The notes beneath the pieces are model-generated. The model did no database searches. It had not been told where the DNA came from and saw only the letters and a list, made by a program, of their open reading frames with translations. Positions 10,409-10,507 of a stretch of 20,350 nt of DNA are shown here, piece by piece (position 1 is the first letter of the stretch; every line of letters starts with the position of its first letter). This DNA comes from Escherichia coli. GTDB taxonomy: Bacteria > Pseudomonadota > Gammaproteobacteria > Enterobacterales > Enterobacteriaceae. The position numbers and the translations under genes are program-made. Where the stretch lies: assembly GCF_003334335.1 (NCBI RefSeq), contig NZ_QOWQ01000052.1; one strand, 5' to 3'.

Positions 10409-10507
10409 AATTAACCTCTTTTAAATTTCGCTTTTCCTGAATTCAGACAACACGATCCCCTGCCAACTTAGCGGCCTAAAAAAGCATTGTCTGAATAGCG
10501 TTACGTT

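Follow-up and report, generated by a model that had tools for sequence, protein, structure and literature searches.

The spacer between hyi and glxR in the Escherichia coli allantoin/glyoxylate cluster harbors a cis-RNA structure that is supported by covariation and is present in E. coli K-12. A short inverted repeat in this spacer is the predicted basal helix of a conserved cis-acting hairpin within the gcl-hyi-glxR-allW-allB-ybbY-glxK mRNA. The hairpin has apparently not been described previously: literature searches returned no description of it, and a search of the 4227 families of Rfam 15 over positions 9400-11400, with E-values up to 10, yields no match in the spacer. With the element absent from Rfam, its alignment and covariance model could seed a new family. 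The gcl operon connects purine/allantoin breakdown with glyoxylate assimilation and is regarded as a single transcription unit, served by one promoter and two DNA-binding regulators. An RNA structure at the hyi/glxR boundary points to a post-transcriptional layer in this operon, which may consist of segmental mRNA stability, processing, or gated translation setting the first two enzymes relative to the rest.

The window, i.e. the whole stretch of 20,350 nucleotides that was analyzed (E. coli contig NZ_QOWQ01000052.1), carries this cluster with its genes read from the minus strand (Table 1). The order 3' of glxR is allW, allB, ybbY, and glxK. The hyi-glxR spacer is 100% identical to that of MG1655, and the two genes flank it as the initial annotation had placed them. 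A repeat search recovers the 10-nt inverted repeat reported in that annotation, ATTCAGACAA at 10441-10450 being 100% complementary to TTGTCTGAAT at 10487-10496. The perfection of the repeat and its location in the 99-bp gap are thereby retained, while the second arm had been given one position away (10488-10497) and the loop as 37 instead of 36 nt. The arm centres are 46 bp apart, and the repeat with its interior occupies 56 of the 99 nt. When the spacer was dinucleotide-shuffled 5000 times, 0.5% of the shuffles contained a perfect inverted repeat of 10 bp or more enclosing a loop of 3-80 nt, and the 20-kb window contains five such repeats versus 1.25 per shuffled window. By itself, the repeat stands out only mildly; what strongly supports the predicted element is the comparative evidence.

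Table 1. Features of the predicted hyi-glxR hairpin and its surroundings (positions in the window).
Feature	Position	Strand	Remarks
gcl	11297-13078	-	593 aa annotated
hyi	10508-11284	-	258 aa
hyi stop codon UAA	10508-10510	-	12 nt upstream of the hairpin start
hyi-glxR spacer	10409-10507		99 nt
Whole hairpin	10441-10496	-	56 nt, 21 bp, three tiers (P1, P2, P3)
P1, 5' strand AUUCAGACAAUGC	10484-10496	-	first 10 nt are the second repeat arm
P2, 5' strand UUUU	10478-10481	-	within a U6 tract
P3, apical stem-loop GCCG-CUAAGU-UGGC	10462-10475	-	above the second 2x2 loop
P2, 3' strand GGGA	10456-10459	-	within a nearly invariant GGG run (columns 52-53 of alignment A1)
P1, 3' strand GUGUUGUCUGAAU	10441-10453	-	last 10 nt are the first repeat arm
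A-rich single-stranded linker UCAGGAAAAGCGAAAUUUAA	10421-10440	-	between the hairpin and the glxR ribosome-binding site
glxR Shine-Dalgarno AAGAGG	10415-10420	-	outside the hairpin
glxR start codon	10406-10408	-	outside the hairpin
glxR	9530-10408	-	292 aa

On the mRNA, which corresponds to the minus strand of the window, the hairpin maps to positions 536498-536553 (+) of MG1655 (NC_000913.3). It folds with a predicted energy of -23.2 kcal/mol and z = -3.58, an energy that no shuffle out of 200 attains. A covariance model of the element (see below) matches positions 10432-10500 (-) with 75.8 bits. P1 is a helix of 13 bp in which AUUCAGACAAUGC pairs with GUGUUGUCUGAAU. P2 is located above a 2x2 internal loop, and its pairing of the U tract with the G-run consists mostly of G·U wobbles. 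The apical sequence of P3 varies freely among orthologs, the pairing being always kept. The linker UCAGGAAAAGCGAAAUUUAA has no U-tract and is not C-rich; it separates the end of the hairpin by 20 nt from the glxR Shine-Dalgarno sequence, which is unpaired in the fold.

Orthologous hyi-glxR junctions were collected by a Hyi protein scan of one genome per species and from contigs encoding Hyi cluster representatives. They originate from Citrobacter (two species), Salmonella, Klebsiella, Superficieibacter, Scandinavium, Buttiauxella, two further Enterobacteriaceae, an uncultured Enterobacter, Izhakiella (Erwiniaceae), Budvicia (Budviciaceae), and several metagenomic relatives. The spacer is 80-100 nt long in all of them. 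When the 19 distinct spacers are folded singly, a hairpin with the same three tiers and 15-24 bp forms in 18, locus L100 being the one in which it does not. The helix reaches 19-24 bp in 13 of these 18 orthologs (23 bp in Salmonella) and is limited to 15-18 bp, with large internal loops, in Klebsiella and in loci L099 and L096. The hairpin starts 7-14 nt past the hyi stop codon, and its distance to the Shine-Dalgarno sequence ranges from ~13 to 32 nt. The orthologs have no fewer than 12 distinct apical stems, namely (5'/3' strands) GCCG/UGGC, GCCG/CGGC, UCCA/UGGA, CUUC/GAAG, CCG/CGG, CCGC/GCGG, UCCGC/GCGGA, UUCC/GGAA, UUCCGC/GCGGGA, UAUCC/GGAUA, UGCCCA/UGGGCA, and UUCACA/UGUGAA.

Covariation was counted for a 22-pair structure on a structure-blind MAFFT alignment of the 19 sequences (A1). 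Standard pairs fill 75.6% of the cells, versus 37-52% when the 3' partner is slid by 1-3 columns. Double-sided changes affect 11 pairs, against a shuffle mean of 7.4 (11 is reached in 6 of 500 shuffles), and 31 cells, against a shuffle mean of 13.9 (0 of 500 shuffles). In Klebsiella and Izhakiella, for instance, CAG/CUG is replaced in a compensatory manner by GGG/CCC. Covariance models were then built from 7 sequences (R1) and from 12 (R2). Matches at the homologous position reach 25.6 bits in Klebsiella (E = 5e-4) and 20.9 bits in Izhakiella. No match at E-values up to 10 is obtained with the model for Buttiauxella (L095), Budvicia (L005), and L100, which were assigned by position and individual folds. 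Comparison of the orthologs shows that the predicted hairpin is kept by purifying and compensatory selection in Enterobacteriaceae and in Izhakiella (Erwiniaceae); for Budvicia (Budviciaceae), it shows only a matching predicted fold at the same position.

One of the readings offered in the initial annotation, a long-range RNA stem, has to be amended on a single point, since the structure is a local hairpin. The stem itself is borne out: it extends to a 21-bp hairpin (z = -3.6) that is kept in 18 of 19 orthologs, with covariation beyond that of shuffled and slid controls. Two of the checks proposed along with it, comparison with orthologous spacers and structure prediction, came out in its favor, covariation being present and the element being found in relatives.

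Beyond the Enterobacterales, model R1 finds no match at the hyi-glxR junction in 74 loci; its sole match, in L036, has E = 9 and is located elsewhere in the locus. The non-Enterobacterales spacers are mostly 10-50 nt long and without the element, as is the 10-nt spacer of Serratia silvae. Of a different kind are the very stable, GC-rich palindromes of REP-like look that are observed in long hyi-glxR spacers of unrelated Proteobacteria, among them Microbulbifer, Burkholderiales, Xanthobacter, Halomonas, and Pseudorhodoferax (loci L014, L015, L020, L023, L031, L059, L061, and L074), with -53 to -118 kcal/mol and z of -3.6 to -8.6. The hyi-glxR junction repeatedly acquires hairpins across lineages.

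Several observations indicate the molecule in which the structure acts. Among the non-Watson-Crick cells of the 22 pairs and 19 sequences, 87 are G·U versus 17 A·C, and therefore the structure is selected in the sense-strand RNA, not in the DNA. The same count in P1 alone gives 31 versus 8. An antisense RNA, a DNA cruciform, or a dyad would not give this asymmetry, which argues again for the sense-strand RNA. Covariance-model scores are of 58-82 bits on the sense strand versus at most 23.5 bits on the antisense strand of the same loci, and the sense strand has the more stable fold in most taxa.

Alleles within E. coli display the same preference. In alleles of the HS / 2014C-3051 type, the 5' arm is GTTCAGGCAA, which leads to two G·T mismatches in DNA and to G·U pairs in RNA. 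These alleles read GUUCAGGCAA...UUGUCUGAAU, with two stem positions G·U; mismatches interrupt their repeat in DNA, whereas their stem in RNA stays whole. Within E. coli, a perfect DNA repeat is a property of certain alleles. The P1 pair concerned is A-U in K-12, G·U in the HS type, and G-C in Salmonella and Citrobacter, and the HS-type G·U is the exact intermediate between the Salmonella and K-12 states. These three pair states, segregating among Salmonella/Citrobacter, E. coli HS-type, and K-12-type alleles, provide a clean example of compensatory evolution via G·U (G-C to G·U to A-U). Of 5426 complete E. coli genomes, 5348 contain the spacer, 5345 of them with a match of nearly full length. 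A divergent allele is found in 103 genomes, including EC15 (L081, NZ_CP060919.1), whose hyi-glxR junctions are 80-90% identical to that of K-12 (85% in EC15). Nearly all other E. coli genomes are at least 95% identical at the junction, and almost none are intermediate; the divergent allele looks like a recombination import from a divergent lineage, as far as these identities suggest. Its apical region is altered in EC15, and it folds better, with 24 bp and -28.6 kcal/mol.

The hairpin is better conserved than its surroundings. Identity of the hairpin to that of E. coli is 78% in Salmonella and 74% in Citrobacter werkmanii. The four-fold degenerate sites of hyi and glxR are saturated, with 37-45% identity (41% for the E. 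coli-Salmonella pair), and identity over the 5' portion of the spacer amounts to 33-50%. Conservation also extends to features other than pairing: the 3' side of P2 has a nearly invariant GGG run, the P2 U·G pairs are retained in 12-16 of the 19 sequences and almost never become U-A or C-G, and the sequence of P1 is conserved across genera. As judged from the alignment, a purely structural role does not account for the conserved GGG run and P2 U·G pairs. With regard to a riboswitch or other ligand-sensing RNA, the apical and internal loops vary in size and sequence among orthologs. Across the ortholog spacers, no conserved alternative pairing with the Shine-Dalgarno sequence was seen. A pseudoknot between the U-tract and the A-rich Shine-Dalgarno region, inspected by eye, amounts to low-complexity complementarity with no clear covariation.

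As to function, the hairpin may serve, by analogy with characterized elements, as an intercistronic processing/stability element, either a barrier to exonucleases or a site of the RNase III type; this is the likeliest of the roles considered here, and a tentative assignment. An RNA end might be made by an endonuclease in the A-rich linker, by RNase III within the ~22-bp helix, or by downstream termination, and the linker UCAGGAAAAGCGAAAUUUAA is a candidate endonuclease entry site. The hairpin would then constitute the 3' end of a gcl-hyi mRNA segment, and the gcl/hyi and glxR-to-glxK halves could have different mRNA lifetimes and protein yields from one promoter. A decay barrier or processing element fits the hairpin because of its position past a stop codon, its length of two turns, the lack of a U-tract, the unobstructed ribosome-binding site downstream, and the variable linker. 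These features also fit an RNase III site like that of T7 R1.1. Since the distance between hairpin and Shine-Dalgarno sequence is variable, the hairpin would not act by occluding the ribosome-binding site. According to Dar & Sorek (2018, PMC6061677), E. coli transcripts whose 3' ends carry stable stem-loops without U-tracts are shielded there from PNPase and RNase II. Three findings speak against the processing/stability element: no C-rich rut tract follows the hairpin, unlike what is found for Rho-linked protective hairpins; the tandem G·U pairs and GGG of P2 have persisted where a passive barrier would allow replacement by A-U or G-C; and the strong sequence conservation of P1 is not accounted for by such a barrier.

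The last two findings are those expected if the hairpin were a regulatory element bound by a trans factor (CsrA via GGA, ProQ, or another RNA-binding protein) or by a pathway metabolite, tuning glxR translation or transcriptional read-through at the boundary between hyi and glxR. This possibility appears rather doubtful. It would explain the nearly invariant GGG run, the G·U pairs kept in 12-16 of 19 sequences where A-U or G-C would also pair, and the P1 sequence conserved across genera. Most orthologs moreover have purine tracts with GGA within the 3' half of the hairpin, in the linker (CAGGAAAA), and at the Shine-Dalgarno sequence or close to it. A(N)GGA is the CsrA consensus, and the GGA arrangement resembles that of dual CsrA sites. 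However, the E. coli spacer contains two GGA by eye, about the chance number and with no obvious enrichment, and the loops, where contacts would be expected, are variable in sequence and size. Furthermore, no alternative pairing with the Shine-Dalgarno sequence covaries, the hairpin lies at 13 to 32 nt from it, and no Rfam family matches.

It is unlikely, by comparison, that the hairpin is a dedicated RNase III site, whose two-turn helix would be cut to part the gcl-hyi mRNA from glxR-...-glxK, after the manner of phage T7 early mRNA or rpsO-pnp. The at least ~20 bp of coaxial dsRNA associated with such sites are found in K-12 (21 bp), Salmonella (23 bp), and EC15 (24 bp), out of a range of 15-24 bp, and the position is intercistronic. 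The internal loops of K-12 resemble those of single-cut T7-type substrates, a likeness judged by Nicholson-type substrate rules. The orthologs with only 15-18 bp and large internal loops (L099, Klebsiella, and L096) do not agree with a dedicated site. The palindromes in the long hyi-glxR spacers of unrelated lineages are consistent with either this site or the processing/stability element, and are proof of neither.

Finally among the RNA-level roles, the hairpin could be a sensor or gate, in which a protein or a small molecule would read the G·U/GGG tier and decide on cutting, stabilizing, or translation past hyi. This is quite improbable. If true, it would split the operon into a constitutively coupled gcl-hyi part and a separately tunable glxR-allW-allB-ybbY-glxK part.

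It is very improbable that the repeat has its function in the DNA itself, be it as an operator dyad or within an internal promoter driving glxR-allW-allB. The initial annotation had considered both a dyad protein-binding site and an internal promoter for glxR-ybbW-allB. In favor of such a function, the inverted repeat is perfect in the DNA of the K-12 allele, and its 3' arm runs into a second, 10-bp perfect palindrome, CTGAATTCAG at 10436-10445 (+), that is also found in Citrobacter werkmanii and Scandinavium. The adjacent AUUCAGGAAAAGC repeats the 5' arm AUUCAGACAAUGC in direct orientation with a 77% match. The palindrome is missing, however, from Salmonella, Klebsiella, and Izhakiella; considered as a DNA site or an alternative pairing, it was discarded for this lack of conservation and for being unable to self-fold. 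The dyad is contradicted by the 46 bp between the arm centres, a spacing unsuited to half-sites, which would lie one or two helical turns from each other, and by the HS-type alleles, which break the symmetry in DNA (G·T) yet keep G·U in RNA, in line with the G·U:A·C ratio of 87:17. Covariation of the apical stems would not be needed, either, by a protein site in the arms. The internal promoter is not supported: in 10200-10800, there are 0 σ70-like sites with -35 and -10 hexamers 16-18 nt apart on either strand versus 1.7 expected from shuffles, gclp is the only promoter reported, and gcl, hyi, and glxR are co-induced to an equal extent.

Other identities were rejected. An intrinsic terminator would require a GC-rich hairpin with a U-rich tract beginning within 0-2 nt of it, and the sequence after the stem is UCAGGAAAAGCG; no terminator-like site is detected in 10200-10800 on either strand. 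A rut site directly downstream was dismissed, with C/G ratios of 0.27-0.71 in 50-nt windows and the first 75 nt after the stem being G-rich. A small ORF starting from UUG/GUG in the 3' arm is in frame 0, 1, or 2 relative to glxR depending on the taxon, and its length and stop differ as well. A blastn search with 11-nt words and the 99-nt spacer as query finds a median of 1 place per genome and a maximum of 2 over 5348 genomes, which excludes a REP/BIME, an ERIC, or another dispersed repeat. It is extremely improbable that the structure has no function at all and is a palindrome that arose by chance or the remnant of a repeat inserted there. In favor of this, a 10-bp repeat is only a 0.5% event per spacer, four others exist in the window, and REP-like palindromes occupy the same spacer in unrelated lineages. 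Against it, the element is single-copy (a median of one place per genome, in 5348 of 5426 genomes) and, although four-fold sites are saturated, is retained with compensation in Enterobacteriaceae/Erwiniaceae and matched by a fold in Budviciaceae.

Published data give no sign of a promoter within the operon. The promoter gclp is the only one listed for the gcl-glxK operon in the 2025 paper on the cluster (PMC12535856), and joint increases of 5.2-, 4.8-, and 5.7-fold for gcl, hyi, and glxR were measured in a microarray study (PMC6176936). Public maps of RNA ends are uninformative at the hairpin because the operon is repressed under standard conditions, and it is likewise not expressed in published CLIP and RIL experiments. 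In the Salmonella TIER-seq data, gcl, gip (hyi), and garR (glxR) are at TPM values of ~2-11 (PMC5222698, supplement 3), and the TRS termini give no match. The Term-seq and bicyclomycin tables of Adams et al. (PMC7815308) have no entry at MG1655 5364xx-5366xx, and gcl/hyi/glxR are not mentioned in a tiling-array study of RNase III (PMC3082872). The only Rho termination region in the operon is at 535744 of MG1655 NC_000913.3, i.e. window position 11250 (-) (PMC7815308, supplementary file 2). It is found 35 nt inside hyi, 47 nt past the gcl stop, and ~750 nt upstream of the hairpin, and thus has no bearing on the latter. In 800-nt windows, the upstream/downstream reads at this region are 25/12 without bicyclomycin and 28/92 with it, for a Rho score of 6.8 (PMC7815308). 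With Rho inhibited, downstream reads therein exceed upstream ones, which hints at a start or a change in stability near the gcl/hyi junction and not at simple read-through.

Some further features of the window have been observed besides the hairpin. The glxR-allW spacer (9362-9529, 168 nt, -) contains hairpins at ~9487-9514 (GGCCGAUAUCA...UGAAUCGGCC) and ~9450-9470, followed by a very A/U-rich stretch. This whole spacer folds with z = -2.7 and gives weak, sub-threshold Rfam matches to pan, S808, trpB, and RalA. The four other perfect inverted repeats, of 11-12 bp, are located at 3888-3915, 8012-8108, 11443-11491 (within the gcl coding sequence), and 16918-16978. The first of them has 12-bp arms and a 4-nt loop, and is found between the convergent ORFs 2948-3733 (+) and 3961-5112 (-), with a terminator-like site nearby (3776-3795). 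A strong terminator-like hairpin at 13138-13155 (-), CCCGCTCTGCGGAGCGGG TTTTTTT, directly follows allR, ~60 nt before the gcl start. The mechanical gcl ORF (11297-13168, 623 aa) exceeds the annotated protein of 593 aa by 30 codons, and the real gcl start is therefore at 13078.

Among known systems, the closest likeness may be to elements that protect or process mRNA ends. Protective 3' stem-loops (Dar & Sorek 2018, PMC6061677), and likewise the malE-malF REP hairpins, share with the hyi-glxR hairpin a stable stem-loop without U-tract, past a stop codon in an operon. Like the protective stem-loops, it would be long enough to stall PNPase and RNase II. In contrast with protective and REP hairpins, it is single-copy, is not a REP, and is not followed by a C-rich rut tract. 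It also differs from most protective hairpins in being conserved and covarying across genera, which is unreported for most of them. RNase III hairpins (T7 R1.1-type, rpsO-pnp, and the rnc leader) resemble it in having an irregular helix of about two turns with internal loops in an intercistronic position, and differ from it in that some hyi-glxR orthologs reach only 15-18 bp. Intrinsic terminators and attenuators have in common with it a hairpin in a transcribed spacer; the hyi-glxR stem is, however, much longer than theirs typically are, contains many G·U and A-U pairs in its middle, and lacks a trailing U-tract, and the genes downstream are co-expressed with those upstream. Unlike the enterobacterial cis-regulatory motifs of Rfam, the hairpin matches no family and is located between two cistrons instead of in a 5' UTR, and like these motifs it is a structure of ~55-70 nt, supported by covariation and carried by an mRNA.
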